A DNA stretch of 64,000 nt from Gammaproteobacteria bacterium (GTDB lineage: Bacteria > Pseudomonadota > Gammaproteobacteria > Arenicellales > Poriferihabitantaceae), in the NCBI GenBank assembly GCA_009842505.1, contig VYFG01000003.1, positions 7,691 to 71,690 of the forward strand, in the 5' to 3' direction. Made by a program: the position numbers and the translations under genes. Below are positions 38,793 through 54,417 of this stretch, in pieces (position 1 is the stretch's first letter; every line of letters starts with the position of its first letter). The notes under the pieces were generated by a model. That model saw only the letters and a program-made list of their open reading frames with translations. It was not told the origin of the DNA and ran no database searches.

Positions 38793-38801
38793 GCAATCGA
38801 C

Positions 38802-39341
38802 TCAGAGGTACAACAACATGAAATTACGGATGCCATCAGGCAGCAATTCGTAAACCTGTCCGGCCGGAATCTTTACCTGTAAGAACGCCTTGAAAATCAC
38901 CACAATGCCCACTCCCATTGCCGCAGCACCAAGATACATATCTTTTGTGCGGTACCCCACCCGGTAGGTCAAAGCCAAGGTGAACAACAGCGTAGCTCCC
39001 AGGTATCCGATCCTGGGAACGATCCAGACGTAGATCAGAAACCAGACCGAATACTCGAGGGAACGAATCCAGAAAATCACCTCGGGACCACGTCCAGGCG
39101 TTCGCGGTGAAGCCAGGGAGCCGATGCAATGCAGTACGGCGAAAAGCAACATACCGCTCAGGCTGATGGTCGGCCAGAAGGCGGGCTGAGCAAAAAACTT
39201 GGTTCGCTTGGCCCATATAGCCTGTTCGCCAAGTTGGCTGACCAGGAAAACAGACAAGAGTAAAAACGCCACGGCAAAGGCCAGATCGCCGGGATGGCGT
39301 TCGCGCTTAAAAAAACTCACGAACCCCGATTTCGCGGCCAT
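38802..39341 (-). CDS. tctB: Tripartite tricarboxylate transporter small membrane subunit
   Basis: 179 aa with four predicted transmembrane segments, positioned between tctC and tctA. Confidence 0.7.
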   Translation of the reverse strand: MAAKSGFVSFFKRERHPGDLAFAVAFLLLSVFLVSQLGEQAIWAKRTKFFAQPAFWPTISLSGMLLFAVLHCIGSLASPRTPGRGPEVIFWIRSLEYSVWFLIYVWIVPRIGYLGATLLFTLALTYRVGYRTKDMYLGAAAMGVGIVVIFKAFLQVKIPAGQVYELLPDGIRNFMLLYL

Positions 39342-39405
39342 TGACCTACCCCTCTACGTAAGCGAAAAGGCCTAACGCATGGCAACAATAAACTGAATTG
39401 CGGCT

Positions 39406-40338
39406 CTACTCGAGTATCTGGTTTATACGGCCAAAGGATACTATGTCGCGTTCGATCTGTTCGTGGGCCTGATCGACATCCTGCCAGTAGATCAAGGCGC
39501 CGGTTTCATTCGAAAGTTCCTTTGCCTGGTCTGACTGCATGACGCGCATAGCGACACTGCGGATTTTTTCCCGCGCATCCGCCGGGGTATCCTTATGGAC
39601 GAACAGTCCGTTCCACAGTGAGATATCGAGTTCGGGCGCAATTTCGGCAACTGTTGGGGCATCGGGTGTTTTCGAAATACGATCCCCGGTAATCGAGGCC
39701 AGAACCTTGACCTTGTCCAGGCATGGCAGCACCAACTGCAACGTGGTATTGATCACGTCGGCATCACCTGAAGCCAAGGTATTGCAATCGAGCGCATCGA
39801 AGGCTGCATCCGAGGCATATTCGAAATCCAGGTGCACCGCCAGCGCCAGAGTCACCTTGGTCGGAATCAGCGGAGTGCCGAAGTGGCCGAGCGTGACGTC
39901 ATTCTCTCTGGCGTATTCGGCAAGTCCCTGCATGTCGTCATAGGGCGCATCTCCATTTGCGACGATCACAAACGGGTAAGTCAGGAAGTTGCCTATGGGC
40001 TCGAATGGATTGGGACTCAGTTCGGGAATGCCGATATTCGGCCCAACTACCGGGATGGCGATAATGAACGAGCCGACAGTGTAGCCATCGGCCGGTGCGT
40101 TTGCTACTTCAACGGCTCCAGGGAACGGGCCCCCGCCCCCGCCAGGCTTGTTGACTACTGCCGCAGGTACGCCGTATTCGGCCTGAAATTCATCTGCAAT
40201 CATGCGGGTCAGCACGTCTTCCAGGTCACCAGGCGGCCAGGGCACGATAAAGGTGACCGGTTTTTCCGGATACTCGGCCTGTGCCGTAAAAACGACAAAT
40301 GACAAGCCCATGATCAGGGCCAAGGCTAACTTTTTCAT
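39406..40338 (-). CDS. tctC: Tripartite tricarboxylate transporter periplasmic substrate-binding protein (Bug family)
   Basis: A signal peptide is followed by YPEKPVTFIVPWPPGDLEDVLTRMIADEF...VVNKPGGGG, the TctC/Bug hallmark. Confidence 0.85.
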   Translation of the reverse strand: MKKLALALIMGLSFVVFTAQAEYPEKPVTFIVPWPPGDLEDVLTRMIADEFQAEYGVPAAVVNKPGGGGGPFPGAVEVANAPADGYTVGSFIIAIPVVGPNIGIPELSPNPFEPIGNFLTYPFVIVANGDAPYDDMQGLAEYARENDVTLGHFGTPLIPTKVTLALAVHLDFEYASDAAFDALDCNTLASGDADVINTTLQLVLPCLDKVKVLASITGDRISKTPDAPTVAEIAPELDISLWNGLFVHKDTPADAREKIRSVAMRVMQSDQAKELSNETGALIYWQDVDQAHEQIERDIVSFGRINQILE

Positions 40339-40406
40339 AACTCCTCCAGATTTTCAGATTGTAGTTAATCTATTACCAACACCCGCACACTGCCAGAAGC
40401 ACAATT

Positions 40407-41279
40407 TCAGTGCCAGCCGGTTTCGGGTTTATCAAACCAGACATGCACCTGCCCCGTGCCGGTCGCGTTTTCATAGTCACTGAACATCCGCCCTTTCGCA
40501 TTGCACTCATGCTCGCCCAGGGCGCCGATCATGATCAGGTAGTGTCCGAACATGCCTTCCGGCTTATGCGGACGGAACGCCTCCATCTCATCAATGACGC
40601 GCGCGTGATCGCCCTGCTGCCACCAATCGATACGTTCCTCGTCCGCAGCGCGTGCCTCCGGCGTACGGATATGAATCGGGTCGGACGCTTCGTGATCGGG
40701 GATTTCATCGAACGGCCAGAAGCGATGGCTCATGCCACCGCTGGCGATGATCACGACGCGCTGATCCGAGGCGGCAACCGCGTCGGCAATGCCGCGGCCG
40801 ACAGCGAGGAAATTGTGATCGCGTGCCGTCTGGCACAGTCCCATGGACAGCCAGGTCTCCCCGCGATTGAGATAGTGCGCGGTGTTGATGGTCGGGTAAT
40901 GGAGCGGCAAGTAGGGATCGTCACAGGGATAGCAGCGGGTACCCTTGAGATTGACCTTCTCCGCCAGCAGACGGGCGAATTCCGGGTTGCCTTTCAGATT
41001 GTAGGGTACCTGCACCATGCCGCGGGGCAGTTCCTCGGCGGTGAATTTCCCCTGCAGCCGTTCGTGTGAGGTGACGACGAACTCCCAAGTGGTAAACCAG
41101 TGTGAATCGAGGAGCAGTATGGTGTCCGGTTGCAGCTCGTCAAGCACTTCGCTGCGAATGCGCTCCAGCCCGGGCACCAGGCTGATCTCCTTCCCCTCAT
41201 TGAGCTCCAGTCTCAATTCGCGGGGAAACATGATGGTGGGGGCGTGTGACAGAAAACCAGCGCCGACTATTTCTCCCAT
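40407..41279 (-). CDS. hpaD: Class III (LigB-type) extradiol dioxygenase, homoprotocatechuate 2,3-dioxygenase-like
   Basis: 290 aa. The segments GFLSHAPTIM, LLLDSHWF, IIASGGMSHRF and the C-terminal ATGTGQVHVWF are colinear with E. coli HpaD/HpcB. The gene is clustered with hpaE/H/I. Confidence 0.7.
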   Translation of the reverse strand: MGEIVGAGFLSHAPTIMFPRELRLELNEGKEISLVPGLERIRSEVLDELQPDTILLLDSHWFTTWEFVVTSHERLQGKFTAEELPRGMVQVPYNLKGNPEFARLLAEKVNLKGTRCYPCDDPYLPLHYPTINTAHYLNRGETWLSMGLCQTARDHNFLAVGRGIADAVAASDQRVVIIASGGMSHRFWPFDEIPDHEASDPIHIRTPEARAADEERIDWWQQGDHARVIDEMEAFRPHKPEGMFGHYLIMIGALGEHECNAKGRMFSDYENATGTGQVHVWFDKPETGWH

Positions 41280-41335
41280 CCCGATTCTGCCAGTAATTTA
41301 CAACGATAAAGGCTAGCTTAGCATTCGGTGTTTTC

Positions 41336-41349
41336 GTTTGCAACCGAAC
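41336..41349. promoter_or_regulatory. Operator-like inverted repeat, copy d (GTTTG-CAAC-CGAAC)
   Basis: This site lies 57 nt upstream of the hpaD-like ATG. With its flanks (TCGTTTGCAACCGAACGATAT, 41334-41354) it matches copy b at 19 of 21 positions. Confidence 0.55.
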
Positions 41350-41801
41350 GATATCTCCTGAAGCTGGTGAACCGGGGCAATGTCTCCATGTGCGCAAGTT
41401 CTGTTAGAAACAGCCCCGGTGAATCCATGGACGAATGATCCACTACCAAGGTCCTGTGTCCTGCCTAGTCATGATCATCGCCGGGCATTGGACAATATTA
41501 CCTGTTGGGCGTGACCCGCCCGCATTGCGTGCCAGTTCCGAAAAGCGGCGACAACAGTGCGCGAGCAACAATTCATCCGAATGACGCGAGTGCAAAAGGG
41601 TACGGGATCCGGGCGGGTTGATTTGTTCCCGGTCTCCGGATGCAACTCATCCGCACCGTCCTGGTATCAAAGATGCTTCTGCCGCAGGTCTTCCCCCCGA
41701 AACCGAGCAGGGAAAATTCCCGAACGGCGATTGGATAGTGTTTCTTCGGGCCGCTTTCCGTGTTGAAAATACGTCCTGCAGCATCCAGCAGGAAATCGCA
41801 C

Positions 41802-41831
41802 TTGATTTCGTTAGCATGCTAACGATATTAT
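41802..41831 (+). promoter_or_regulatory. Putative sigma70 promoter of the P450 operon, with operator copy a filling the spacer
   Basis: TTGATT (41802-41807), an 18-nt spacer, then TATTAT (41826-41831). The spacer is exactly the perfect 18-bp palindrome TCGTTAGCATGCTAACGA (41808-41825; core GTTAG-CATG-CTAAC at 41810-41823). This is a classic repressor-occluded promoter layout. Confidence 0.55.
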
Positions 41832-42035
41832 GTAAAATGTTCAGCTCCCTAGACTGGAGCCTCTAGTCGATAGCTACCTCAACAGAGGCGTCGACTCGAC
41901 CGACCTGATGGCCATGAAATGCAAGATGCCGAATATTCTGAATCCAGCAAGATGGCAACATGGGAACAAGCCCTGCAGACCATTTGTTCCTGCGCCTGCC
42001 GAATCTCGTACACGGACAATCATGGAGATGCCTGA

Positions 42036-43304
42036 ATGACTAGCTGGAATCCTTCTGACAATGGACACGCAGTCCTTTCCGACCATGATTCATTCATCAA
42101 TGGTCCTCCGCACAACACATTTGCCCGAATGCGCCGGGAGGACCCATTGGCCCGCTGTGATGGCGGCGAGTTCGAGGATTACTGGTCACTCACGCGGTAC
42201 GAAGACATCATTACTTACAACAGGAATTTCGAACTCCTGAGTTCGAGCCGCGGCATTCGTCTTGAAGACCAGAGCTACGAAGAGTATCTCGCGCGGCGCA
42301 CCTTCCAGGAAACCGATCCACCCGAACACACGCACATGCGCATGCTTGTTGGCAAGGCCTTTTCCAGGAGGGTTATTACCGAGTACGAAAAAACTATTCG
42401 TGAGCTGTGTGACGAAATCCTGGACCAGTCACTGCCTCTCGGCGAATTTGATGCGGTCAAGGAGATTGCGCGACAACTGCCGATGCGCATGCTTGGGCAA
42501 ATCATCGGCGTACCGGATGACGATCTGGACTGGCTGGTAACCAAGGGAGATGAACTCATCGCTGCCTCTGACCCCGAATATGCAAGCCCTCTGGCCATGG
42601 ACGACGACAGCGACGAGTATCGCCTGTTGCCGTTTCGCTCCCCAGCCGGCGCCGAACTCTACGATTACGCAAAAAGGCTGATTAAAGACAAGGCCGGCCG
42701 AAACGAACAGAGTGGCGTATTGGAACTGATTACCCGGCCTAATGCACAGGGCGAAGTGATCAGCGATACCGAGTTTCGCAATTTCTTCTGCCTGGTTGTA
42801 GCGGCAGGAAACGATACCACGCGTTACGCGTTGTCGGCCTCTTTGCACGCATTGGCAAACAAACCGGAATTGCTGAAACAGTTGCAGCAGGCCGACGGAG
42901 ACCTGTGGGATACCGCTACCGAGGAAATGATCCGATGGGCTTCTCCGACGATGCACTTCCGCCGCACCGCGATGCGGGACTTCGAGTTGCATGGCAAGAA
43001 TGTACGCGAAGGCGACAAGGTATTGTTTTGGTTCGTGTCCGGCAACCGCGACGAAACGCAATTCGATAATCCGTTCGAGATTGACTTAACGCGCAAACCC
43101 AATCGGCACATGGCGTTTGGCCAGGGAGGACCACACGTTTGTCTCGGGATGTGGCTGGCGCGGCTCGAGGTTCGTTTGCTGTTGCAGGCACTGGTAGGCC
43201 GGGTGAAGTCGATCAGGCAAGCCGGAAAGCATGAGTTTCTACGCTCCAACTTTGTTGGCGGAATAAAAAGACTGCCGCTATTTGTCGAATTGAATTCAAG
43301 CTAG
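42036..43304 (+). CDS. Cytochrome P450 monooxygenase (class I, three-component)
   Basis: The heme-thiolate loop FGQGGPHVCLGMWLA, I-helix AAGNDTTR, ExxR (EEMIRW) and GGAGA 7 nt upstream of the ATG are present. By eye, the terminal RSNFVGGIKRLP and ETDPPEHT segments resemble the CYP124/125/142-like clade. Confidence 0.9.
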   Translation: MTSWNPSDNGHAVLSDHDSFINGPPHNTFARMRREDPLARCDGGEFEDYWSLTRYEDIITYNRNFELLSSSRGIRLEDQSYEEYLARRTFQETDPPEHTHMRMLVGKAFSRRVITEYEKTIRELCDEILDQSLPLGEFDAVKEIARQLPMRMLGQIIGVPDDDLDWLVTKGDELIAASDPEYASPLAMDDDSDEYRLLPFRSPAGAELYDYAKRLIKDKAGRNEQSGVLELITRPNAQGEVISDTEFRNFFCLVVAAGNDTTRYALSASLHALANKPELLKQLQQADGDLWDTATEEMIRWASPTMHFRRTAMRDFELHGKNVREGDKVLFWFVSGNRDETQFDNPFEIDLTRKPNRHMAFGQGGPHVCLGMWLARLEVRLLLQALVGRVKSIRQAGKHEFLRSNFVGGIKRLPLFVELNSS

Positions 43305-43328
43305 CAATGCAACGAGGATCGTAACGCC

Positions 43329-43649
43329 ATGGCCAAGATCACCTGGAAAATGCAAGACGGAACCGTGATCTCCGCAGAGGTTAAAGATGGCCTGAATCTG
43401 ATGGAGGCGGCCACCGCCAACAACGTTTCGCATATCATGGGCGAATGCGGCGGATGCCTGTCCTGCGCCACCTGCCACGTTTTCGTGGCCCACGAATGGC
43501 TGGCCAAGACCGGTGAAGTCGACGATATTGAGGATGCCATGCTGGAAATGACCGAAGTCGAGCGTGAAGAAAACAGCCGCCTGAGTTGCCAGATAATCGC
43601 ATCGCCCGAGCTCGATGGTCTGCTGCTGCACGTACCCGAACCGGAATAG
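43329..43649 (+). CDS. [2Fe-2S] ferredoxin (putidaredoxin/adrenodoxin type)
   Basis: 106 aa with the cluster ligand pattern GECGGCLSCATCHV ... LSCQI. Confidence 0.85.
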   Translation: MAKITWKMQDGTVISAEVKDGLNLMEAATANNVSHIMGECGGCLSCATCHVFVAHEWLAKTGEVDDIEDAMLEMTEVEREENSRLSCQIIASPELDGLLLHVPEPE

Positions 43650-43652
43650 TCC

Positions 43653-44873
43653 ATGGCCTCGCCGATCGTCATCATCGGGGCAGGACAGGCCGCAGCATCG
43701 TTTGTCTCGCGTCACACCGCGCTCGGCAGTACGCAACCGCTACTCTTGATCGGGGAAGAGTCTCATCCGCCTTATCAGCGCCCACCCTTATCGAAGAAAT
43801 ACCTCCTCGGTGAGCTTGAAAGGGACCGCCTGTTCATCCGTCCCCTGGACTGGTACGCGGAGCAGGGGGTCGAGACCAGATTCAACACGCGCGTCACCGA
43901 GATAAGGCCGGCAGCTAGACAAATCGCAGTCGCTGCAGGCGACATTATCGATTACGACCGGTTGATCATCTGTACCGGTTCCAGTGCACGCAACCTACCC
44001 GCCGAAATCGGCGGAGGCCTCGACGCCGTGTTTACGCTGCGCAGCATTGCTGACATTGATCGCTTGTCGCCCGAGTTCAGGACCGGGCGTCGGCTCCTGA
44101 TTGTCGGGGGCGGCTATATTGGCCTTGAAGCGGCCGCAGCCGGGCGTCAGCTCGGACTCGAGGTCACGGTCATAGAAATGGCGGAACGCATCATGCAACG
44201 GGTCGCCGCCCGCGAAACCTCGAACTACTTCCGGCATCTGCACAGCAGCCACGGCGTCGAGATCATGGAAGGGGCGGAAATGATCCGCCTGGTCGAGGCA
44301 GGTGGCCGGGCTTGCGGCGCCGAATTGACCTCGGGCGAGATCATTGATGCAGACCTGGTCCTGATCGGTATCGGCGGCAGCCCCAACATCGAGCTGGCAC
44401 AGGCTGCCAATCTCGAGTGCGACACAGGAATCCGCGTCGACGGAGCTTGCCGCAGTTCCGATCCGTATATTTACGCTGCCGGCGACTGCACGAGCTTTGA
44501 GCGCAATGGACAGCAAATTCGCCTTGAGTCTGTGCAAAATGCCGCCGACCAGGGAGATCTGGTGGCGCGCGTCATCGCCGGTGAGGACGTAAGCTATACG
44601 GCATTGCCGTGGTTCTGGTCTGATCAATACGACTGCAAGCTGCAGATTGCCGGACTCAATATCGGTTACGACCAATGCGTGGTACGGCCAGGCGACAAGG
44701 ATCAGACACAATCCATCTGGTACTACTCCGGCGACAGGCTCCTCGCGGTTGACGCTATAAACGATCCAAAGGCATATGTCTTTGGCCGCAAGATGATCGA
44801 ATCCGGCATGAATCCCCGTAAGGAAAGTGTTGCCAGTCCCGATTCCGACCTCAGGGCCATCGCGAAAGGCTGA
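43653..44873 (+). CDS. FAD-dependent ferredoxin--NAD(P)+ reductase (putidaredoxin-reductase-like)
   Basis: It has two Rossmann motifs (IVIIGAGQAAAS and LLIVGGGYIGLEAAA), YAAGDC and a C-terminal dimerisation domain. It starts 4 nt after the ferredoxin stop. Confidence 0.85.
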   Translation: MASPIVIIGAGQAAASFVSRHTALGSTQPLLLIGEESHPPYQRPPLSKKYLLGELERDRLFIRPLDWYAEQGVETRFNTRVTEIRPAARQIAVAAGDIIDYDRLIICTGSSARNLPAEIGGGLDAVFTLRSIADIDRLSPEFRTGRRLLIVGGGYIGLEAAAAGRQLGLEVTVIEMAERIMQRVAARETSNYFRHLHSSHGVEIMEGAEMIRLVEAGGRACGAELTSGEIIDADLVLIGIGGSPNIELAQAANLECDTGIRVDGACRSSDPYIYAAGDCTSFERNGQQIRLESVQNAADQGDLVARVIAGEDVSYTALPWFWSDQYDCKLQIAGLNIGYDQCVVRPGDKDQTQSIWYYSGDRLLAVDAINDPKAYVFGRKMIESGMNPRKESVASPDSDLRAIAKG

Positions 44874-44888
44874 CAAACTTTCCTGGAC

Positions 44889-45506
44889 ATGACTGACTGC
44901 ATTATCAGAGCACTGGCGGAGCCATTCCGGCAAGATATGTTACAGATGATTGCCCAGGCGTTTGTCAAAGACGATCCGTTGGCCCGTTCGCAGGGAATCA
45001 AGGAGTCCGAGTTTCACGATTTTATTGACCGTCTCTATGATGACTTTGAGGTCGGCGGATTGAGCCGCGTGGCGATAGACTCCAGCTCGAAGCGAATCGC
45101 CGCCGTCGTACTCGCGAAGGCACACCTATTCGAACCGAGTGAAGAGGGTAGCGATGCCATCGCCGCCATCATCACGGCGGCGCGGGATCTTTATTTTTCC
45201 GGCTATGCGCCACCCGCCGGGGAACTGATGCATATTCACTTTGTTGCATCCGCCGTGGACTATCGCCGTCGACGATGGGTATATCCGTTGATTGCAGACT
45301 GCCTCGCGGCGGGAAAGGGCCGGGGCTACCAGAAAGCTGTCGTCGAGACTTCCGGAATTCGTTCGAGAAACCTGTTCGAAAAGCATTTCGACTTTCGCGC
45401 AAGGGTAAACATTGACTACACGAGTTTCGAATGGCGGGGAAATTTTCCGTTCCGCTCCATCGCTGACCATGGCGGTCTGACACTGATGAGTCGGCGGCTG
45501 GATTAA
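44889..45506 (+). CDS. GNAT-like acetyltransferase, resembling arylalkylamine N-acetyltransferase-like proteins
   Basis: 205 aa and last gene of the P450 operon. The layout (N-terminal EPF...DDPL, central VAID...IAAVVL, then a putative acetyl-CoA-binding stretch VDYRRRRWVYPLIADCLAAGKGRGYQ) is GNAT-like. The assignment was made by eye only. Confidence 0.45.
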   Translation: MTDCIIRALAEPFRQDMLQMIAQAFVKDDPLARSQGIKESEFHDFIDRLYDDFEVGGLSRVAIDSSSKRIAAVVLAKAHLFEPSEEGSDAIAAIITAARDLYFSGYAPPAGELMHIHFVASAVDYRRRRWVYPLIADCLAAGKGRGYQKAVVETSGIRSRNLFEKHFDFRARVNIDYTSFEWRGNFPFRSIADHGGLTLMSRRLD

Positions 45507-45584
45507 TCACCTTGCCGGAAGATGGCATATGCGGCGTAGATCAGCTCCCAAAGCAGAGATACGGCGTTGGGTTAGAATATATCC

Positions 45585-45598
45585 GTTAGCTTCCTAAC
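45585..45598. promoter_or_regulatory. Operator-like inverted repeat, copy c (GTTAG-CTTC-CTAAC)
   Basis: A perfect 5+5 inverted repeat with a 4-nt spacer, located 125 nt upstream of the hpaE ATG. Confidence 0.5.
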
Positions 45599-45722
45599 AT
45601 TGGTAAGACATCCGCCTTGACGGATGAATGGCAGATGCAAGGCTGGGCCAATCTGGTTCAGAGTCCGGCCCGGTTGGTTGCCCCCGATGACTACAGGATT
45701 TCAAATTTTAGGAGACCGAATC

Positions 45723-47198
45723 ATGAGTGCAGAAGTCCAAGACAGGCGCGTAGACATAGAAGGTATCTCGATTTCCACCGATCACTTCATTGGCGGCAAG
45801 CGAGTCTCGTCACCGAATACATTCGAAGTCCGCTCTCCGCTCGACTGGGATTGGAAACTCGCCGATGTGGCCCGCGGCGACGCGGCCACCGCCGCTGCGG
45901 CAATCGAAGCTGCGCAGCAGGGATTCGACGTCTGGTCGCGGATGTCGCCTGCCGAACGCGGGCAGATCATGAATAACCTGGCTGACCGCATCGAGGCCAA
46001 CATCGAAAAAATCGCAACCATCGAATGCCTCGACATGGCGATGCTGCTGGAAAGCCTGAAGTTGCGCGTGATTCCGCGCGCAGCAGTGAATTTTCGCGCC
46101 TATGCAGACCTTGCTGCCGAATATCAGGAGCGTGTGTGGGATTCGAAAGGCACGCACAACACCGTGATTCGAATGCCCGCAGGCCCGGCGGTCATCATAA
46201 CTCCCTGGAACGCGCCGTTCATGCTGTCGACCTGGAAATGCGCACCGGCGCTTGCTGCCGGCAATTCGGTCATCCTCAAACCGGCCGAGTGGTCGCCGCT
46301 GTCGTTAAGCCTGCTCGCCGACTGGATCAATGGTGCCGGATTTCCACCGGGTGCATTCAATATTGTGCAGGGCATTGGTAGTGAACTGGGGCCGTGTCTG
46401 ACCGGCGACTCGAGGGTAAAGCGCGTGTCGTTTACCGGTTCACCGGCAACCGCACGCCACATCGGCCATGCGGCCGCAGAGAACATAGTGCCATTCACGG
46501 CGGAACTGGGGGGAAAGGGCGCGCTGGTGGTATTTGCCGACGCCGATATTGATGCCGCTGCGCAAAAGGCTTCCAACCAGTTCCACGATTCCGGTCAGGT
46601 TTGCCTTGCGGGCACGCGTATCCTCGTCGAGGAATCGATTCGCGATGAATTCTTGCACAAGTTGACGATGTACACCGAAAAGCAGATACAGGGCGACAGC
46701 CGGGACCCGGCAACCACGCTGTCCCCGGCGATACACCCGAATCATCTCAAAAATGTGGAGGCCTACGTCGACAATGCGCGCAACCGCGGCGATCGGATCG
46801 TGTTTGGCGGTCAACGGTGGAAGAAAGACGGGTTGTGGTATGAACCCACGTTGATTGAACCAAAATCGAACGATTCCGAAGTGGTGCAAAACGAGATCTT
46901 CGGCCCGGTACTGACCATTCAAACCTTTACCGACGAGGCCGAGGCAATCAGCATGGCCAACTCAACGGCCTACGGTCTTTCAGGAATAATCTATACCAGC
47001 GATGCGGAAAGAGCCGAACGCGTCGGTCGTGCAGTACGCGCCGGCACGGTCTGGGTCAATACTTTCCTGATTCGCGACCTGACCGCTCCTTTTGGCGGCA
47101 TCGGCATCAGCGGAATCGGCCGTGAAGGCGGTCACTATGCGCTGGAATTCCATTGCGATCTGAAAACACTGCAGATTCTGGAGGATAGCGTCCACTAG
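45723..47198 (+). CDS. hpaE: 5-carboxymethyl-2-hydroxymuconate semialdehyde dehydrogenase-like NAD+ aldehyde dehydrogenase
   Basis: ATG at 45723 is preceded by GGAGA. ALDH motifs are present (ITPWNAPF, ELGGKG, catalytic Cys in GQVCLAGTR), and the C-terminal RDLTAPFGGIGISGIGREGGHYALEF is colinear with HpaE. Confidence 0.75.
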   Translation: MSAEVQDRRVDIEGISISTDHFIGGKRVSSPNTFEVRSPLDWDWKLADVARGDAATAAAAIEAAQQGFDVWSRMSPAERGQIMNNLADRIEANIEKIATIECLDMAMLLESLKLRVIPRAAVNFRAYADLAAEYQERVWDSKGTHNTVIRMPAGPAVIITPWNAPFMLSTWKCAPALAAGNSVILKPAEWSPLSLSLLADWINGAGFPPGAFNIVQGIGSELGPCLTGDSRVKRVSFTGSPATARHIGHAAAENIVPFTAELGGKGALVVFADADIDAAAQKASNQFHDSGQVCLAGTRILVEESIRDEFLHKLTMYTEKQIQGDSRDPATTLSPAIHPNHLKNVEAYVDNARNRGDRIVFGGQRWKKDGLWYEPTLIEPKSNDSEVVQNEIFGPVLTIQTFTDEAEAISMANSTAYGLSGIIYTSDAERAERVGRAVRAGTVWVNTFLIRDLTAPFGGIGISGIGREGGHYALEFHCDLKTLQILEDSVH

Positions 47199-47281
47199 CC
47201 AGTGTCAGGATTTTCGCTTGATACCGGGCAAGTCAAACAGCCACCTGAACATCGAGTTCGGGTGGCATGATTCACACGGAA

Positions 47282-48166
47282 TTATTCTTCGTCGAGTATG
47301 CTTTTGTAATGCGCGGCGCCCTGCCCGCCGGCGGCCCGTTTTCCGCGAAACTCCCAGTCGCCGCCTTTCGCCGTCGAAATCACCTCTTCAGATTCGGTCG
47401 GTTGCGCACCGACATCATCACGAATCGGGGTCGGTCCCTGCACGATTTTGTTGGCCAGTTTACCGAGGCCCTCAACTTCCACCTCGACGATATCACCGGG
47501 ATAGACCGTACGACTCATCGCGGGCGTACCGGACAGCAACAGGTCTCCCGGCTCCAGGGTGATATTGCGCGCGATATCGGCAACCAGATAGTGCATATCC
47601 CATTCCATCTCGTCAGTATTTCCATCCTGCATCACCTTGCCATTGACGATCGTCTTGATCCGCTTACCGCGAAAATCCCAGTCGGTGACCAATCCGGGAC
47701 CTACGGGACATAGGGTGTCCGATCCCTTCACCCTCAACATCGAACCCGCATCGGTGTCACGGAAATCGTGCAGACCGTAATCATTGGCAATCGCATAACC
47801 GGCGATATAACCCCCTGCGTCAGCCTGGCTGATATTACGGCAATGTCTGCCGATGACAATCGCGATTTCTCCTTCATAGTTCAACCACTTGCAACGCTCG
47901 GGCCTGACGACATCGGCTTTGTGGCCACACAATGCGGTCAACGGTTTCTGAAAATATGTTGGCGCATCCGGGAGCACGGTCATGAACTCATCCACGCGGC
48001 TTCTGTAATTCAGATGGACACAGATAATCTTTCGCGGTTCGGTCGGCGGCAAGTGGACGGCTTCTTCAATCGGCATCTCACGACCGTCACTGGCAATCAG
48101 CATATCTCCATTTACTGCAACCGTGGTTGCGTAGCCATCGAGCAGTATTCTTCTGAATTCAGCCAT
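47282..48166 (-). CDS. Fumarylacetoacetate-hydrolase-family enzyme (single-domain HpaG/HpcE-like decarboxylase/isomerase)
   Basis: The FAH fold segments are present (KIICVHLNYRSR, WLNYEGEIAIVIG, LLSGTPAMS). The start at MAEFRR (48166) is preferred; ATG at 48202 is the alternative. Confidence 0.75.
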   Translation of the reverse strand: MAEFRRILLDGYATTVAVNGDMLIASDGREMPIEEAVHLPPTEPRKIICVHLNYRSRVDEFMTVLPDAPTYFQKPLTALCGHKADVVRPERCKWLNYEGEIAIVIGRHCRNISQADAGGYIAGYAIANDYGLHDFRDTDAGSMLRVKGSDTLCPVGPGLVTDWDFRGKRIKTIVNGKVMQDGNTDEMEWDMHYLVADIARNITLEPGDLLLSGTPAMSRTVYPGDIVEVEVEGLGKLANKIVQGPTPIRDDVGAQPTESEEVISTAKGGDWEFRGKRAAGGQGAAHYKSILDEE

Positions 48167-48180
48167 GATTGAAATATATT

Positions 48181-48194
48181 GTTTGGTTCCGAAC
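48181..48194. promoter_or_regulatory. Operator-like inverted repeat, copy e (GTTTG-GTTC-CGAAC)
   Basis: It lies between the divergent FAH-family gene and the MarR gene, 15 nt upstream of the preferred FAH start. Confidence 0.45.
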
Positions 48195-48376
48195 GTATTC
48201 ATGCTATCTTATATTCATGGGCGCTTCAAGCATGGAAACAGTGTACGAAACCATATCCGGCAGAAATCATGGACGAGACATGGCGGCGCGATAACGCTTG
48301 ACGAGCAGGCGGGTATGGATATGGGCCTCGATAAAGTACTATATCGTCGAGCACATTCACGGGAGATTTTGAAACC

Positions 48377-48871
48377 ATGATCAGAGATTCCACGCCTTCT
48401 CCGGCTGAAATTGACGCTAACAGTCAGTTAAGAAAGATGAATATCGATCATGACTCCATGGCAACGATGTCGAATATATTTCGTGTCGCAACCAAGTTCC
48501 GTTCGCATGTGGAACGGGAGGTATTGAACCAGCATAATCTGTCGTTCTCGACATTTACCATTCTCTGGATCACCTGGATCAGGGGGCCGAAGGAGTTCAA
48601 GGAGTTGGCCATGGATTGCGGCGTCAGCAAGGGAACCATGACCGGCTTGATCAAGGGACTGATCAAGATGGATCTGGTGTCGCGTGGCAAACACAAAACT
48701 GATGGCCGTCGGCTGATGATCAGTATCACGCCTGCAGGCCGCCGACTGATCAAGAAAATATTTCCACAGGTCAATCGACTGGAAACGCTGTTCAACAAGC
48801 AGTTAAAGGTAAAAGAGAAAAGGGAACTCGCAAATTTGCTGCGCATTATCCTTAATACTTCCCTGCCCTAG
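48377..48871 (+). CDS. MarR-family transcriptional regulator
   Basis: The winged-helix core (LSFSTFTILWI...PKEFKELAMDCGVSKGTMTGLIKGLIKMDLVSRGKHKTDGRRLMISITPAG) is typical of MarR. The start may be one of the internal Met codons. Confidence 0.8.
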   Translation: MIRDSTPSPAEIDANSQLRKMNIDHDSMATMSNIFRVATKFRSHVEREVLNQHNLSFSTFTILWITWIRGPKEFKELAMDCGVSKGTMTGLIKGLIKMDLVSRGKHKTDGRRLMISITPAGRRLIKKIFPQVNRLETLFNKQLKVKEKRELANLLRIILNTSLP

Positions 48872-48924
48872 ATGAACAGCAAGCCCATTGACCATGATTC
48901 GTTGATGATCACCCAAGAATCAAG

Positions 48925-49710
48925 ATGATTGCGGCCTACCCGGTAATCGGCATTCCAGTCGATGTAAAGTTTTACGAAGACGCGCCCTATCACATCGTCG
49001 GTGAGAAATACATCAACGCGATTGCCCACGGCGTCGAAAGTTACCCGTTGATTATTCCGGCAATGGGTGACGGTCACGATCTCAAAGCCTTCGACGGCAA
49101 GTTCTCATGGGCCGATATTGTCTCTTCGCTTGACGGTATTTTCCTGCCCGGGAGTCACTCCAATATCCACCCCCGTCGCTATGGAAAACCTGAACGTCAG
49201 CCAGTATTGCCAATCGACGAACAGCGCGACGAAATGACGCTGAACTTGATTCACGTTTGCATTGAAAACCGGGTTCCGCTGCTTGCCGTGTGCCGTGGTT
49301 ACCAGGAACTGAATGTCGCTTTCGGAGGCAGCATTCATGTCGAGATCCACGAAATGGGTACCTTTTCCGATCATCGGGAAAATTATGAACTTCAACGTGA
49401 CCAGCAGTACCAGCCCGCGCACCCAGTTGAATTTACTCCCGGCGGGCTGCTGCACAGCATCTACGGCGATACTGTCGCGATGGTGAATTCCCTGCATGGG
49501 CAGGGAATCGATTGCCTGGGTGACGGATTGCAGGTCGAGGCCGTTGCCCCCGACGGCTTGATCGAGGCGATCCGTGTAACCGACAGCCCCGGTTTCACAC
49601 TGGGAGTTCAATGGCATCCTGAATGGCGATTCTGGGAAGACACGCTGTCGCAGAAAATTTTTCATACGTTTCGCGATGCGGTACTCGAGCGTTTTAAAGC
49701 ACGTCAATGA
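48925..49710 (+). CDS. PuuD-like gamma-glutamyl-amide hydrolase (class I glutamine amidotransferase-like, peptidase C26)
   Basis: The nucleophile elbow LLAVCRGYQELNVAFGG and GVQWHPEW are present. The protein is 261 aa, similar in length to PuuD. Confidence 0.8.
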   Translation: MIAAYPVIGIPVDVKFYEDAPYHIVGEKYINAIAHGVESYPLIIPAMGDGHDLKAFDGKFSWADIVSSLDGIFLPGSHSNIHPRRYGKPERQPVLPIDEQRDEMTLNLIHVCIENRVPLLAVCRGYQELNVAFGGSIHVEIHEMGTFSDHRENYELQRDQQYQPAHPVEFTPGGLLHSIYGDTVAMVNSLHGQGIDCLGDGLQVEAVAPDGLIEAIRVTDSPGFTLGVQWHPEWRFWEDTLSQKIFHTFRDAVLERFKARQ

Positions 49711-49798
49711 CCTTTCGAACACACCACCCCGGAACGATTCATGTTCAATACTACTTGCCGTCTGGATTGATTTTGTGACGGCAGTAACGGAGAACCCG

Positions 49799-50599
49799 AT
49801 GCAAGATTCCGATATCAAGAGTGTTGCCCGGCGTTTGCATGAGGCAGAAGCAAACGTGGAGCGCATCAAGCAGACTTCTCTGGAGTATCCCAACATAACC
49901 ATTGCGGATGCCTATGCCATTCAAAGCGAATGGTGCAAGATCAAGATCTCCGCGGGCCAGGTAGTAAAGGGTCACAAAATCGGGTTGACGTCACGCGCGA
50001 TGCAAATGCAGGCCGAAATAGACGAGCCGGATTTCGGTACGCTGTTCGACAAGATGTTTTTCGACGATGGTTCCGAAATTGAAGCCAAGAAATTCCTGAC
50101 ACCGATGGTAGAGGTCGAACTGGCATTCATTCTCGGCAGCCGCCTCGAGGGCGACGCGGTTACTATTTTCGATGTAATCAATGCAACTGACTTCGTGACG
50201 CCTGCTCTCGAAATTATCGATTTTCGCAACAACGGCGTCGATCCGGGGCAGCAACAGACGCGTACCGTGATGGATACGATTGCCGACAATGCCGCCAACG
50301 CCGGAATCGTACTTGGCGGCCGTGCGATGCGGCCGAAGGATCTGGATTTACGTTGGATTCCTGCACTGTTGTACAAAAACGGCATCATTGAAGAAACCGG
50401 GGTCGCCGCCGGGGTGCTCAACAACCCGGCTAACGGCATCGTCTGGCTGGCAAAAAAATTGGCGCCATTCTGCATTGCGCTGGAGGCCGGCCAGGTGGTT
50501 CTTGCCGGCTCCTTTACGCGACCGGTGCCCGTTGCCCCCGGCGACACCATTCACGGGGACTTCTGCAATCTCGGATCAATCACCTGCAGGTTTCGCTAG
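49799..50599 (+). CDS. hpaH: 2-oxo-hept-4-ene-1,7-dioate hydratase
   Basis: 266 aa and colinear with E. coli HpaH (KGHKIGLTSRAMQ, VEVELAFIL, DTIADNAANAGIVLGG, GVAAGVLNNPANGIVWLAKKLAP, ...GSITCRF). Confidence 0.88.
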   Translation: MQDSDIKSVARRLHEAEANVERIKQTSLEYPNITIADAYAIQSEWCKIKISAGQVVKGHKIGLTSRAMQMQAEIDEPDFGTLFDKMFFDDGSEIEAKKFLTPMVEVELAFILGSRLEGDAVTIFDVINATDFVTPALEIIDFRNNGVDPGQQQTRTVMDTIADNAANAGIVLGGRAMRPKDLDLRWIPALLYKNGIIEETGVAAGVLNNPANGIVWLAKKLAPFCIALEAGQVVLAGSFTRPVPVAPGDTIHGDFCNLGSITCRFR

Positions 50600-50601
50600 A
50601 C

Positions 50602-51393
50602 ATGAAAACACTCAGCAATCCCTTTAAAGAAGCCCTTGCCGATAACAGGGTTCAGTACGGCTACTGGATGGCGTTGGCCAGTCCCTACACTGCCGAGATT
50701 TGTGCAACCGCCGGGTTCGACTGGCTGCTGATCGATGGCGAACATGGACCAAACGACATTCATTCGATACTGGCACAGCTGCAGGCAGTCGCTGCCTATC
50801 CGTCACAACCCGTGGTGCGGCCGGTAGAGGGAAGCGCAGCCAGTATCAAGCAATTGCTCGACATCGGGGCGCACAACCTCCTCATTCCGATGGTCGAAAC
50901 CGCCGAGCAGGCCAGACAGCTGGTCAACGCGACACGTTATCCGCCTGCCGGCTCCCGCGGCGTCGGGGCGGCAATCGCCCGATCATCGCGTTGGCTTGCG
51001 ATCGACAACTACGACCACAGAATCGAAAACCAAATTTGCCTGTTGCTGCAGATAGAATCCCGGGCCGGGCTGGAAAATCTCGATCAGATTCTTGAGGTTG
51101 AGGGCTACGATGGCATATTCATCGGCCCTTCGGACTTGGCCGCATCCCTGGATCAGATCGGTAACACCCGGCACCCCGACGTGCAATCCGCAATAGGCGC
51201 CGCAATCGCGAAGATCAGGCGGGCAAATAAAGCGGTCGGCATACTCAGCACCGAAGATGACATGATCCAGTCCTATCTGGAGATGGGGGCCGTCTTTATT
51301 GCCATCGGCGTCGACACCATCGCCCTGGCCGGTTCCACACGCGCACTGGCGAGCCAGTACCAGCATATGGATTCAGTGCGTGCACGAACCTGA
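50602..51393 (+). CDS. hpaI: 4-hydroxy-2-oxoheptanedioate (HpaI/HpcH) aldolase
   Basis: 263 aa and colinear with E. coli HpaI (GFDWLLIDGEHGPN, YPSQPVVRP, TRYPPAGSRGVG, DGIFIGPSDLAAS). Confidence 0.88.
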   Translation: MKTLSNPFKEALADNRVQYGYWMALASPYTAEICATAGFDWLLIDGEHGPNDIHSILAQLQAVAAYPSQPVVRPVEGSAASIKQLLDIGAHNLLIPMVETAEQARQLVNATRYPPAGSRGVGAAIARSSRWLAIDNYDHRIENQICLLLQIESRAGLENLDQILEVEGYDGIFIGPSDLAASLDQIGNTRHPDVQSAIGAAIAKIRRANKAVGILSTEDDMIQSYLEMGAVFIAIGVDTIALAGSTRALASQYQHMDSVRART

Positions 51394-51439
51394 TTTCAGG
51401 AATCATGTTAATTCCAGCCGGGGTGTGTTATGTTTTATC

Positions 51440-51453
51440 GTTAGCAACCTAAC
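51440..51453. promoter_or_regulatory. Operator-like inverted repeat, copy b (GTTAG-CAAC-CTAAC)
   Basis: The extended palindrome ATCGTTAG-CAAC-CTAACGAT (51437-51456) lies 125 nt upstream of the GS-like ATG. That is the same distance as copy c from hpaE. Confidence 0.55.
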
Positions 51454-51580
51454 GATATATCAATGGCACATGTGGGGTCATCGGTAAAGCGATTAGCTGT
51501 CAGCTTGGTAAGGCGGAATCAACAACAAACACTACCGGTTCCCCCAAAGCGCCATCAGTGTTGAAGAGAGAGGCTCAATC

Positions 51581-52870
51581 ATGTTAGACGACTTCAAACG
51601 CATCCGTGTGCTGTCCGCCGACCACCTGAATCTGGCGCGCGGCAAGTATGTTCCCGCCGGGTTGGCGAAGAAAGGTGAGATGAACGCCTGTATCGGCATC
51701 TATGCCGTCGATTACAAACGGGATCTCATCAATGCCCCTGGGGCCGGGATGGAAATGGGTTTGCCCGACCTGAAGGCAATCTACGATATCAAACAAGTCC
51801 GTCCCAGCTGGGAAAAGGATACCGGTGTCGTCGTGGCCGATCTATACAGCAATGACAAGCCTCTGCCTCTCTGTGGACGGAGCTTGCTGAAGATGACCCT
51901 TGCCGACTGGAAAGCGTTGGGCTGCACCGTCAACATTGGGATTGAACTGGAGGCTTACGTTTTTCAACGCGGCCATGATGGAAAATGGGAGCCTTACGAC
52001 ACGCCCGGAGCCTACGTGTACGGCACAGGTCCGAGTGTGGACCCCGAAGGATTGATGGATATCGTCTGGGAAGCCGCCGAGAAGCTGAATTTTCCGATAG
52101 AGGCGATAAATTCCGAATTCGACTGGCCGCAGTTTGAGTTCACTCTCGAATATGCCGATGCGCTCACCGCGCTGGACAATCTTTTCCTTTTTCGCCTAAT
52201 GGCCAAGGAACTTTTGATCAAGCAGGGCTACCTCTTCAGTTTCATGCCCAAGCCCTTGTCGGATCGAGGCGGCAGTGGGATGCACCTGAACATCAGCCTG
52301 TCAGACGAACACGGCAATAACCTGCTCAACGATCCGAGTAAAGATGACGGCCTCTCCGACATGGTCAAGCCAATGATTGCCGGCCTGATCAAGCATCATG
52401 TGTCGCTGGCTGCCCTGATGTGTCCCACGATCAATTCATACAAGCGACTTCGACCGTCAAACATTTGCGGACATGCGGGCAACTGGGGTTACGACCATCG
52501 CTGCGCTACGACGCGTATACCGCTCGACCGCGGCAAGGGAACCCGCATCGAGCATCGGTTGGCCGATTGTGCAGCGAATCCCTACATCGCGGCAGCAGCA
52601 GCGCTACAGGCCTGTCGGCTCGGCTTTACGAAACAGTACCCGGTTCCGGATCCCGAGCCGAGCGAAGGATTCACCGAACCCAAAACAGACAATGTCATAC
52701 CGGACACGATGGGCGAGGGGCTACGCGCTCTCAAGGCTGATACCGATCTGACCGAGGCAATCGGGCAACCCATGGTCGATCATTTTCTGGCGATCAAGGG
52801 CAAGGAGTGGAACGAGTATCTCGACCACACCACCGACTGGGAAATTGATACCTATCTGGAATTCATCTAG
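51581..52870 (+). CDS. Glutamine-synthetase-family ligase (gamma-glutamyl-amide synthetase candidate, PuuA/IpuC-like)
   Basis: 429 aa with a GS catalytic domain (IGIELEAYVF, MPKPLSDRGGSGMHLNISL, NSYKRL, RIEHRLADCAANPY) and a shortened N-terminal domain. GAGAGAGG precedes the ATG. Confidence 0.8.
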   Translation: MLDDFKRIRVLSADHLNLARGKYVPAGLAKKGEMNACIGIYAVDYKRDLINAPGAGMEMGLPDLKAIYDIKQVRPSWEKDTGVVVADLYSNDKPLPLCGRSLLKMTLADWKALGCTVNIGIELEAYVFQRGHDGKWEPYDTPGAYVYGTGPSVDPEGLMDIVWEAAEKLNFPIEAINSEFDWPQFEFTLEYADALTALDNLFLFRLMAKELLIKQGYLFSFMPKPLSDRGGSGMHLNISLSDEHGNNLLNDPSKDDGLSDMVKPMIAGLIKHHVSLAALMCPTINSYKRLRPSNICGHAGNWGYDHRCATTRIPLDRGKGTRIEHRLADCAANPYIAAAAALQACRLGFTKQYPVPDPEPSEGFTEPKTDNVIPDTMGEGLRALKADTDLTEAIGQPMVDHFLAIKGKEWNEYLDHTTDWEIDTYLEFI

Positions 52871-53451
52871 CTCCATACCCCACGAAGTTGGCATCAACCT
52901 GAGGCTTTTCATTGCGACCCTGAAGCAATCGCCGCGTAAGCGGGGTCGGGATTGATGTCGATTTAACGTTGTATCCTGTCATCCAGGTCCTTGAATCACG
53001 TATGGAAGCTATTTCAAAAACCATTTCCTATCAATGAAATAGGGGGCAGGATTCTCGCGTATGTCCCTACATTGATGCCAGGCGATACCTCTCCACGAAT
53101 GTGCCAGGTCCACGGCGGGGTAGGCATGGTTGTTACTGTCCATCCCTCACACAGAATCCGGATGCAGCCGCCAGGACATGCAACTCCTACCACGGATGAT
53201 TGACGGCAAATCGCAGATCCCGTCTTTCCTGAAAATTTCCATAATCCGATAAGCCCGGAGACTATGCGGAAAATTTGCCGCTATCCATCAAGGCAGTCCA
53301 TGACAATGCTGTTCCCACGACAAGAATTTATCTACAAATCCTGCGATTCACGAAAAATTCACCGGGTACTGCAGCAATCATTATCGAACCGAATCCCGGA
53401 TTGTCACTCTTGTCCCTGTATAATCCACCCCATTGCACATCCCCCTGCCCC

Positions 53452-54417
53452 ATGGACACCCGCGTTCGATACCTGTTCAACCAGACCCTGGCCGATCATG
53501 GCTGCTTTCCCCTGACCCGTGAGCGCCTGTCCGAGTTGCAGATCAACCTCGGCTACCTGTGCAACCAGGCTTGCGAGCACTGCCACGTGGAGGCAGGGCC
53601 GAAGCGCACCGAACTGATGGACCGGGAGACCATGGAGCGGATCGTGGCCTGGGCGGCCGAAAACGGGATCAGGGCCGCCGACCTGACCGGCGGCGCCCCG
53701 GAATTGAACCCACATTTCCGCTGGTTCGTGGATGCCCTGCTCTCACAGGGCATCGCCATCACCTCCCGATGCAACATCACCGTGCTGTTCGAGCCGGGCC
53801 AGGAAGACCTCGCCGAATGGTACGCGGCGCGGAATGTCCGCCTGGTGTGCTCCCTGCCCTGCTATTCCCGGGAAAACGTGGAGCGCCAGCGCGGCAAGGG
53901 GGTGTTCGGCAAGAGCATCGATGGCCTGAAAGCGCTCAACGACCTGGGATACGGCCGCGAGGCGGACAAGATCGTCGACCTCGTCTACAACCCGGTGGGC
54001 CCGGTTCTGCCGCCCCCGCAGGCCGGTCTCGAGGAAGACTACAGGACCCGCCTCAGGGAGGATTTCGGCATCGAGTTCAACCGCCTGCTGACCATTACCA
54101 ACCTGCCGATCAACCGGTTCGAACACTACCTGAAACGTACCGGACAGCTGGAGAGCTACATGCAGCTCCTGGTGGACAACTTCAACCCGGCAACCGTGTC
54201 ACCGCTCATGTGCCGCCACCTGCTGAGCGTGGACTGGCAGGGCTACGTGTTTGACTGCGACTTCAACCAGATGCTCGAACTGCCGCTGGGCGGCGGCAAA
54301 AGGCAGTTGTGGGAACTGGACCCGGGGTCCCTGCAGGGCAGCGTCGTGGCCGTGGGCAATCACTGCTATGGCTGCACCGCGGGCGCCGGCAGCAGCTGCG
54401 GGGGCGCACTGGCCTGA
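53452..54417 (+). CDS. ArsS-type radical SAM / Cys-rich-domain protein (TIGR04167-like)
   Basis: The CxxxCxxC cluster LCNQACEHCHV is followed by GGAPELNP. The characteristic C-terminal Cys-rich tail HCYGCTAGAGSSCGGALA is present. The start is at MDTRVRY (53452), with a TATAAT at 53419-53424 upstream. Confidence 0.7.
   Translation: MDTRVRYLFNQTLADHGCFPLTRERLSELQINLGYLCNQACEHCHVEAGPKRTELMDRETMERIVAWAAENGIRAADLTGGAPELNPHFRWFVDALLSQGIAITSRCNITVLFEPGQEDLAEWYAARNVRLVCSLPCYSRENVERQRGKGVFGKSIDGLKALNDLGYGREADKIVDLVYNPVGPVLPPPQAGLEEDYRTRLREDFGIEFNRLLTITNLPINRFEHYLKRTGQLESYMQLLVDNFNPATVSPLMCRHLLSVDWQGYVFDCDFNQMLELPLGGGKRQLWELDPGSLQGSVVAVGNHCYGCTAGAGSSCGGALA

Follow-up and report, generated by a model that had tools for sequence, protein, structure and literature searches.

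Why does one short inverted repeat recur five times between the operons of a catabolic gene island, and which protein reads it? The island, a predicted regulon of six transcription units on both strands (37290–52870, delimited by profile and family matches), lies in a 64,000-nucleotide stretch of contig VYFG01000003.1 (positions 7,691 to 71,690, assembly GCA_009842505.1) from the metagenome-assembled genome of a sponge-associated gammaproteobacterium of the family Poriferihabitantaceae, order Arenicellales. We refer to this whole stretch as the window and count all coordinates from its first letter. The initial annotation had interpreted the repeats, of the form GTTWG-N4-CKAAC, as operators of the MarR-family regulator encoded in the island. 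Comparison across genomes supports that interpretation: the motif, the catabolic cluster and the MarR gene co-occur across phyla, and clusters without the MarR gene are free of the motif. Judging from these sequence comparisons, we put at roughly 70% the probability that the five repeats are operators of the island's MarR protein, acting as a ligand-released repressor of the island, its own gene included.

The motif itself is real and far beyond chance. In the window, the pattern GTTWGNNNNCKAAC matches at 41336, 41810, 45585, 48181 and 51440 (copies d, a, c, e and b, respectively), the positions that had been claimed, and nowhere else; reread directly from the window, the five copies have the sequences first given for them. 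Over both strands this makes 8 hits, three of the five copies matching on the reverse strand too. Among 100 dinucleotide shuffles the matches averaged 0.20 and never numbered more than 2, so that none reached 8; the earlier chance estimate of about 0.5 per window was of the right order. Freeing both degenerate positions (GTTNG-N4-CNAAC) returned the identical five sites and no more. No copy falls in a coding region, and the 45 kb beyond the island are free of copies.

The intergenic position of copy e depends on the start codon assigned to the neighbouring FAH-family gene. Its longest open reading frame (ORF; 306 aa, start 48202), used by some gene callers, would take in copy e; the start shared by the lineages lies at 48166 (294 aa) and leaves the copy 14 bp upstream of the gene and all five copies intergenic. 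No obvious Shine-Dalgarno sequence precedes this start in the window; the related locus L011 (fetched loci are numbered with an L) has AAGGA. The repeat had also been described as occurring once per inter-operon gap. The intergenic location holds for every copy, but the five copies occupy four gaps, as d and a share the hpaD/P450 divergent region.

From 33 distinct sites we built a symmetric 24-bp position weight matrix (PWM) with the consensus a-w-w-t-C-GTTnG-S-W-W-S-CnAAC-G-a-w-w-t. The full site is a pseudopalindrome of about 18–24 bp, tC-GTTnG-N4-CnAAC-Ga, in which the outer and the inner G/C are fixed, as is the TT/AA, but position 4 is free. The flanks tttCGTT...AACGATAT are indeed common to copies a, b and d, as first noticed. 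With this matrix the five window sites score 15-35 bits and the next best position 8.3; the 21 one-mismatch matches elsewhere in the window all stay at or below 8.3 bits, most of them missing the A/T flanks.

We then compared loci carrying MarR homologues 63-90% identical to the window protein, none of which had been seen when the motif was proposed. Every one of them carries GTTnG-N4-CnAAC at orthologous gaps. The motif is kept even in the Arenicellales loci L011 and L012, which have a different gene order and add genes for an aromatic amino-acid decarboxylase, an aminotransferase and a 3,4-dihydroxyphenylalanine (DOPA) dioxygenase. In eleven annotated loci (176.5 kb, 10.1% intergenic), the PWM gives 39 hits at 15 bits or more, and every one is intergenic. 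A protein 99% identical to the window MarR protein is encoded in chromosome OZ241969.1. When the FAH/MarR intergenic regions of ten lineages are aligned, copy e stands in a nearly invariant block, with variation at arm position 11 alone, amid otherwise poorly conserved sequence. Each of the ten Arenicellales lineages, and also the Microbispora locus L037, has a copy next to its MarR gene, suggesting autoregulation. In L013 (chromosome OZ243919.1, 5619-6444), a transposase-like helix-turn-helix gene replaces the ferredoxin and reductase genes downstream of P450; the operators there are kept.

These data also dispose of a coincidental origin, in which five matches arose by chance in AT-richer intergenic DNA and the pattern was tuned afterwards. 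The degenerate W and K positions were in fact chosen once the sites had been seen, and the intergenic DNA of the island is AT-rich. However, shuffles never exceeded two matches, loci unseen by the earlier reader reproduce the motif at orthologous positions (39 of 40), and the controls described below are nearly empty. The comparative data thus refute this explanation, whose probability we regard as negligible.

Could the repeats instead be nucleic-acid structures or generic repeats, such as a hairpin, a terminator, an RNA element or a dispersed element resembling repetitive extragenic palindromes (REP) or miniature inverted-repeat transposable elements (MITE)? All copies are intergenic inverted repeats, and a terminator-like scan did pick copy a, with a 7-bp stem followed by a T-rich tail. 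But covariation between the arms is lacking: of the 33 distinct sites, 9 have a Watson-Crick pair at positions 4 and 11 and 15 a mismatch, and the inner positions are unpaired too. The repeat is therefore conserved as two protein half-sites and not as a stem, which would in any case have only 5 bp. Copies are found near promoter elements upstream of genes and not at 3' ends; the other 45 kb of the window have none, and 520 kb of loci without the cluster only three matches; and REP elements do not behave like a motif that is conserved across phyla at 36-73% GC. A search of Rfam with 40000-53500 at E ≤ 1 returned no RNA family. The lack of arm covariation and the promoter location rule out the hairpin, terminator and REP forms of this idea, and as a whole we hold it to be very improbable. 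The combination of promoter-proximal orthologous conservation, diverging flanks and absent stem covariation is that of a cis-regulatory site.

The system extends well beyond the Arenicellales. When one genome per species was scanned, MarR homologues (32-45% identical) turned up in Streptosporangiaceae and Acidimicrobiia. Many of these loci, at 70% GC, contain GTTTG-N4-CAAAC with the same tC...Ga flanks. The neighbourhood in Microbispora rosea comprises genes for P450, a glutamine-synthetase-like (GS-like) enzyme, a C26 hydrolase, an aldehyde dehydrogenase (ALDH), LigB, FAH and a ferredoxin reductase, joined by a permease and an ADC-like gene, and its motif sites lie in divergent gaps, one of them upstream of the MarR gene. 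In a presence/absence matrix, the motif is found wherever catabolic genes accompany the MarR homologue and is absent where the homologue stands alone. As a control independent of MarR, we searched metagenomes with the GS-like protein as query. This yielded further lineages with cluster, MarR and motif, complete clusters lacking MarR, and many unrelated loci of GS-like paralogues. Marine contigs of 36% GC with cluster and MarR use GTTCGTATACGAAC; the same combination of cluster, MarR and motif also occurs on other metagenomic contigs at 46-73% GC.

The resulting comparison is a natural experiment on the regulator gene. Among 40 loci with cluster plus MarR (702 kb scanned) there are 96 exact matches, and 39 of the 40 have at least one; the exception, L096, has two one-mismatch copies at orthologous gaps. 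The 49 loci without the cluster (520 kb) contain 3 exact matches, and the three complete clusters without MarR (53 kb) contain none. In these three (L065, L076 and L081), a profile search at E ≤ 10 found no MarR-like ORF, and their one-mismatch hits are without the conserved A/T-rich tC…Ga flanks. The presence of the motif thus depends on the regulator gene (39/40 versus 0/3), with the negative set being small. An alternative regulator was looked for in the MarR-less L081 and L076, and none was found among ten ORFs scanned. L081, of high GC content, carries a gene for a Rieske ring-hydroxylating oxygenase between its GS-like and P450 genes. Four short contigs with the motif and no MarR gene (L060, L087, L088 and L105) are uninformative, because they end where synteny predicts the MarR gene. 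MarR is the only regulator family common to the called loci.

Sequence divergence between the carriers is uneven. Between the sponge symbiont (window 40407-48166) and the actinomycetes, identity is about 75% for the FAH-family protein and about 58% for the LigB-type dioxygenase, and only about 35% for MarR. Taking together the Streptosporangiaceae loci L028-L053, the Acidimicrobiia locus L027 and the 36% GC marine contigs L056, L057 and L070, the cluster, its regulator and its operators appear to have been transferred together from phylum to phylum.

The candidate binder is encoded at 48377..48871 on the plus strand, a protein of 164 aa belonging to the MarR family. It matches Pfam PF01047 at 41.6 bits (gathering threshold 24.6) and PF22381 at 40.7 bits (threshold 27). 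Its AlphaFold2 model (predicted local distance difference test score, pLDDT, 81.3) has a winged-helix MarR fold, with helices at 85-97 and strands at 101-105 and 113-117. All top 50 structural matches in the PDB are MarR-family proteins, DNA complexes of MftR, ST1710, HpaR and MarR among them. The recognition helix, [VI]SKGT[ML]TG[LI]I, is conserved from Gammaproteobacteria to Actinobacteria (Microbispora), the DGR of the wing less strictly; such conservation across phyla fits the shared GTTnG half-site. MarR-family proteins characteristically bind as homodimers to palindromic or pseudopalindromic operators of about 16-24 bp overlapping an adjacent promoter, usually their own too.

The protein is HpaR-like in context without being an HpaR. 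The HpaR model TIGR02337 is its best NCBIfam match, at 56.4 bits, far under the equivalog cut-off of 121.2, and it aligns with the Acinetobacter baumannii HpaR (7EL2) at E = 7e-4 only. SlyA-type NCBIfam models gave no match at E ≤ 0.001, placing the protein outside the SlyA/RovA group.

Where the copies stand relative to the genes they precede can be read from conserved elements at fixed offsets, from which we infer the promoters described here. Copy a (GTTAGCATGCTAAC, 41810..41823) has the best score in the window (35.4 bits) and is the centre of a perfect 18-bp palindrome, TCGTTAGCATGCTAACGA (41808-41825), as first reported. That palindrome is exactly the 18-nt spacer of a predicted promoter of the P450 operon on the plus strand, TTGATT-N18-TATTAT (41802..41831; TTGATT at 41802-41807, TATTAT at 41826-41831). 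The coincidence had been pointed out before, and a sigma-70 scan recovers the same promoter. The elements cTTGATT and TAT(T/G)AT recur with identical spacing in L013, L014, L015, L018 and L022, and the sequence up- and downstream diverges.

Copy d (GTTTGCAACCGAAC, 41336..41349; 32.9 bits) has the extended form ttttC...Gatat and is the predicted operator of the operon of the LigB-type hpaD and tctCBA. Its distance upstream of the LigB start is 56-59 bp in four lineages and 106 bp in L014; between lineages, position 4/11 varies and the spacer CAAC is constant. A predicted extended -10 element of the hpaD promoter, TGcTAAGCT (41315..41323, minus strand), follows 12 nt downstream, so that the copy would cover the -35 region. 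TGnTAAGCT/TGCTATTCT is kept at the same distance from copy d in L013, L018, L022 and L014, and a similar TGnTAAGCT/TGTTATTCT stands at this distance beside the P450/TctC site of L011 and L012. The divergent region shared by d and a measures 756 bp. The two copies are 474 bp apart in the window, compared with 78, 122 and 196 bp in L014, L022 and L013, respectively; the excess of ~450 bp is specific to the window's lineage. BLAST of 41350-41800 and of the 204-nt P450 leader against the window and all loci found near-identical relatives only; this DNA is not a repeat.

Copies b, c and, for FAH, e would lie at about the transcription start of the genes they precede. Copy c (GTTAGCTTCCTAAC, 45585..45598), the predicted operator at about +1 of the gene for the HpaE-like ALDH, has the weakest flanks of the five (15.0 bits). 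It begins 6 nt after a putative -10 element, TAGAAT (45573..45578, plus strand), and TAGAAT, TAAACT or TACACT is found at a constant distance in L013, L014, L015 and L017. The copy itself is kept in these same four loci; it is missing in L018, and in L022, which has no gap there. Copy b (GTTAGCAACCTAAC, 51440..51453; 33.2 bits) is placed likewise for the GS-like gene, 5 nt behind a putative extended -10 element, TGtTATGTT (51426..51434, plus strand). TGnTAnnnT occupies this position in L013, L014, L016 and L020 (8 nt upstream in L020). Copy b is kept in L013, L014, L016/17 and L020, and missing in L018.

Copy e (GTTTGGTTCCGAAC, 48181..48194) would serve two promoters as the shared operator of the FAH/MarR divergent region, autoregulation included. 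It is found 12-15 bp upstream of the FAH start codon in every lineage. Towards FAH, on the minus strand, the predicted promoter is TTGAAG (48224-48229)-N17-TAGCAT (48201-48206), spanning 48201..48229; copy e begins 6 nt after its -10, at about +1, and TTGA(A/T)G-N17-TA(G/T)CAT is kept in eight lineages. Towards MarR, on the plus strand, a putative extended -10 element TGcTATCTT (48202..48210) follows 7 nt downstream of the copy, which lies over the -35 region of the predicted marR promoter; TG-n-TATCTT, TATTCT, TATCCT or TATCGT is present in 10 of 10 lineages. In three loci a second, weaker copy lies 21 bp, or two helical turns (L011 498/519; L012 413/434), or 131 bp (L015 9803/9934) from the main one. 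Such pairs hint at cooperative or multi-dimer binding, as reported for HpaR.

Copies at occlusion positions make ligand-relieved repression of six units the most economical mechanism. With the half-site centres 9 bp apart, a MarR dimer would set one of its recognition helices on tC-GTTnG and the other on CnAAC-Ga. Bound in this way, it would cover the promoter spacer at copy a, the transcription start at copies b, c and e (for FAH), and the -35 region at copy d and at copy e (for its own operon). Repression would thereby extend to each of the island's six transcription units, the regulator's own included, and be lifted once a pathway compound binds MarR; candidates are homoprotocatechuate, the amine substrate and a gamma-glutamyl intermediate. 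We infer MarR as the binder, repression as its action, and the candidate effectors from this arrangement.

A MarR protein bound at the same sites might instead activate, or act dually, at some promoters, by countersilencing or by recruiting RNA polymerase. SlyA can activate, as can Yersinia HpaR at the promoter of type VI secretion system 4 (T6SS4). Copies d and e (for marR) overlap the -35 region of predicted promoters in which a -35 element is not recognisable and only an extended -10 is seen, a placement from which some regulators activate. The island is also AT-richer than its flanks, the type of DNA subject to silencing and countersilencing. On the other hand, copy a in the -35/-10 spacer and copies b, c and e (FAH) at about +1 occupy classic occlusion positions, and catabolic MarR regulators are for the most part repressors released by a ligand. 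On the hpa-meta operon, HpaR acts as a repressor through a site centred at -8 (PMC7180172). We consider activation unlikely.

Several observations weigh against a MarR-operated repressor system. The complete clusters lacking MarR number three, all of about 70% GC, two of them with one gene order. The motif is also tied more closely to the catabolic cluster than to the MarR gene: no canonical site is present within 10 kb at about ten loci (in Streptosporangiaceae, in metagenome-assembled genomes of Acidimicrobiia/Actinomycetes and in one of Polarisedimenticolia) that encode a MarR homologue without the cluster. Six of these MarR proteins from Streptosporangiaceae and three from Acidimicrobiia/Actinomycetes share the recognition helix of their cluster-linked relatives, and their loci show only degenerate relics of sites, as in L052 and L036. 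The targets of these homologues may lie elsewhere in their genomes. As to the promoters, L018 is without copies b and c although the gaps exist, and the FAH promoter spacing is not kept in L011 and L012. A simple sigma-70 promoter scan of the region gave 11 matches versus 8.0 ± 3.1 in shuffles, not above chance, so the promoter assignments draw solely on conservation.

The stricter association with the catabolic genes is what one would expect if the motif were the operator of a different transcription factor, encoded outside the island, with MarR recognising something else. That factor would have to keep its specificity unchanged in Gammaproteobacteria, Actinobacteria and low-GC marine lineages, and its losses would have to coincide exactly with those of the MarR gene. 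The loci have no other regulator gene in common, and the geometry of the site is MarR-like. The central bases of the motif do not match the boxes of GntR, TyrR, CRP and actinobacterial GlnR. A GntR box (GT-N-TA-N-AC), suggested by the marine GTTCGTATACGAAC, was rejected, as the central bases of the sites vary between lineages. An outside factor appears to us slightly less probable again than activation by MarR, and the island's own MarR protein, acting as a repressor, remains the preferred explanation.

How does this predicted regulator–site pair compare with known ones? The motif shares a 5-N4-5 geometry with the operators of HpaR and SlyA and, on sequence grounds, differs from both in specificity. 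HpaR operators in Yersinia and E. coli W are TTAA-N4-TTAA, two per promoter region, of which the one centred at -8 overlaps the -10 element and is repressive; a second type is TGGxT-N4-AxCCA (PMC7180172). As in E. coli W, Yersinia pseudotuberculosis and Acinetobacter baumannii, a MarR-family regulator is encoded here beside homoprotocatechuate meta-cleavage genes, and its sites are inverted repeats with arms of 4-5 bp separated by 4 bp. One of the two HpaR structures (PDB 7EL2/7EL3), 7EL3, is among the top structural matches of the window protein. However, the half-site here is GTTnG/CnAAC with a C/G flank and does not fit TTAA-N4-TTAA. The regulon also adds the GS-like enzyme, the C26 hydrolase, the P450 system and the TctABC transporter, and the 4-hydroxyphenylacetate hydroxylase genes hpaBC of the E. 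coli cluster were not found in the island annotation.

The SlyA consensus is TTAGCAAGCTAA, refined to TTA-N6-TAA, and SlyA has a site just upstream of its own gene (PMC5797941). The core of copy a, TTAGCATGCTAA, matches TTAGCAAGCTAA at 11 of 12 positions, and the half-sites of the general motif, (G)TTn-N6-nAA(C), are spaced as in SlyA sites. Position 4, an A in SlyA sites, is free here, and the A/T at positions 4/11 is not conserved across sites, whereas the outer and inner G/C are fixed. SlyA is a global countersilencer of H-NS; the regulon described here is local and catabolic. Its regulatory logic, a local MarR repressor with palindromic operators over promoters, is textbook; the specific regulator–site pair has not been described previously.

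The genes under putative control form three modules: a GS-like ligase with a C26 gamma-glutamyl hydrolase; a P450, ferredoxin and reductase; and the enzymes of homoprotocatechuate meta-cleavage. We compared the pathway genes of the window (42036-52870), L011 (584-14708), L014 (2180-14397) and L015 (111-11327). In sister loci the P450 operon starts with a pyridoxal-phosphate-dependent aromatic amino-acid decarboxylase gene, and L011 additionally has an aminotransferase gene and a DOPA-dioxygenase-like gene. Taken together, these genes would appear to encode a gamma-glutamylation pathway, so far undescribed, for amines derived from tyrosine or DOPA. In the pathway we propose, an aromatic amine, probably from tyrosine or DOPA, would be gamma-glutamylated by the GS-like enzyme, oxidised by the P450 system and then deglutamylated, and the product would enter homoprotocatechuate meta-cleavage.

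Related logic is known from gamma-glutamylation-dependent amine catabolism. Aniline dioxygenase-type sets combine a GS-like protein (TdnQ/AtdA1) and a protein resembling glutamine amidotransferases (GATase-like; TdnT/AtdA2) with an oxygenase and a reductase, and the isopropylamine (Ipu) pathway uses the GS-like IpuC, the P450 IpuD and the hydrolase IpuF. The loci described here share with them the GS-like ligase, the C26/GATase-like hydrolase and an oxygenase with electron-transfer partners. They differ in that the module is joined to homoprotocatechuate meta-cleavage genes and, in sister loci, to aromatic amino-acid decarboxylase genes; unlike in the aniline type, the oxygenase in most loci is a P450 and not a Rieske enzyme. 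Literature searches on the pathway and its gene combination found no publication describing it, and those on the organism family found only a sponge genome note.

Within the island, the tctA/B/C genes and the LigB-type, HpaD-like dioxygenase gene lie on the minus strand at 37290-41279 by family matches. They are followed on the plus strand by the genes for P450, a 2Fe-2S ferredoxin, ferredoxin reductase and a small GNAT-like protein (42036-45506), and by the HpaE-like ALDH gene (about 45723-47198). The gene for the HpaG-like FAH-family protein occupies 47282-48166 on the minus strand. On the plus strand come the operon of MarR, the PuuD-like C26 gamma-glutamyl hydrolase, HpaH and HpaI (48377-51393) and the gene for the GS-like ligase, resembling gamma-glutamyl-amine synthetases (51581-52870). 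HpaH scores 410 bits (cut-off 351) and HpaI 360 bits, just below its cut-off of 368.8. With HpaD-like, HpaE-like, HpaG-like, HpaH and HpaI genes flanking the MarR gene, the genomic context is that of HpaR. MarR had been called the island's sole regulator, and no other transcription-factor gene occurs among the annotated ORFs of the island. The 205-aa ORF at 44889-45506 has no Pfam or NCBIfam match of its own; its orthologues in L014, L017, L018 and L019 have weak to clear GNAT acetyltransferase (PF00583) matches.

The window as a whole has 62% GC, and the island (about 35-54 kb) about 55%, compared with about 65% in its flanks, which is consistent with horizontal acquisition. The flanking genes are unrelated (sulfatase, endonuclease III-like, ArsS-like radical SAM and PhyH). 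Directly downstream of the island, at 53275-54417, is the gene for an ArsS-type radical SAM protein of arsenosugar biosynthesis (TIGR04167, 434 bits, cut-off 300), and a PhyH-family dioxygenase gene adjoins it on the minus strand (54466-55284).

Motif and MarR gene may together mark a self-contained regulon that crosses phyla and serves an undescribed aromatic-amine route of gamma-glutamylation, P450 oxidation, deglutamylation and homoprotocatechuate meta-cleavage; this wider proposal we advance tentatively, at somewhat less than even odds. Its carriers include sponge symbionts (Ca. Poriferihabitaceae), low-GC marine bacteria and Streptosporangiaceae. Notable here is chiefly that the package of operator, regulator and cluster is conserved across phyla and that the regulated pathway looks uncharacterised. 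The operator model tC-GTTnG-N4-CnAAC-Ga is valid from 36% to 73% GC and can be used to annotate the regulon in genomes and metagenomes. If our reading is true, the operator would be a practical handle for finding the inducer, and hence the substrate, of the pathway, for example through culturable Microbispora or Nonomuraea. As culturable actinomycetes carry the same system, regulator, inducer and amine substrate can be approached without culturing the symbiont. An anonymous island in an uncultured sponge symbiont would thus become a defined regulon, with a predicted six units, one regulator and one operator of 18-24 bp.

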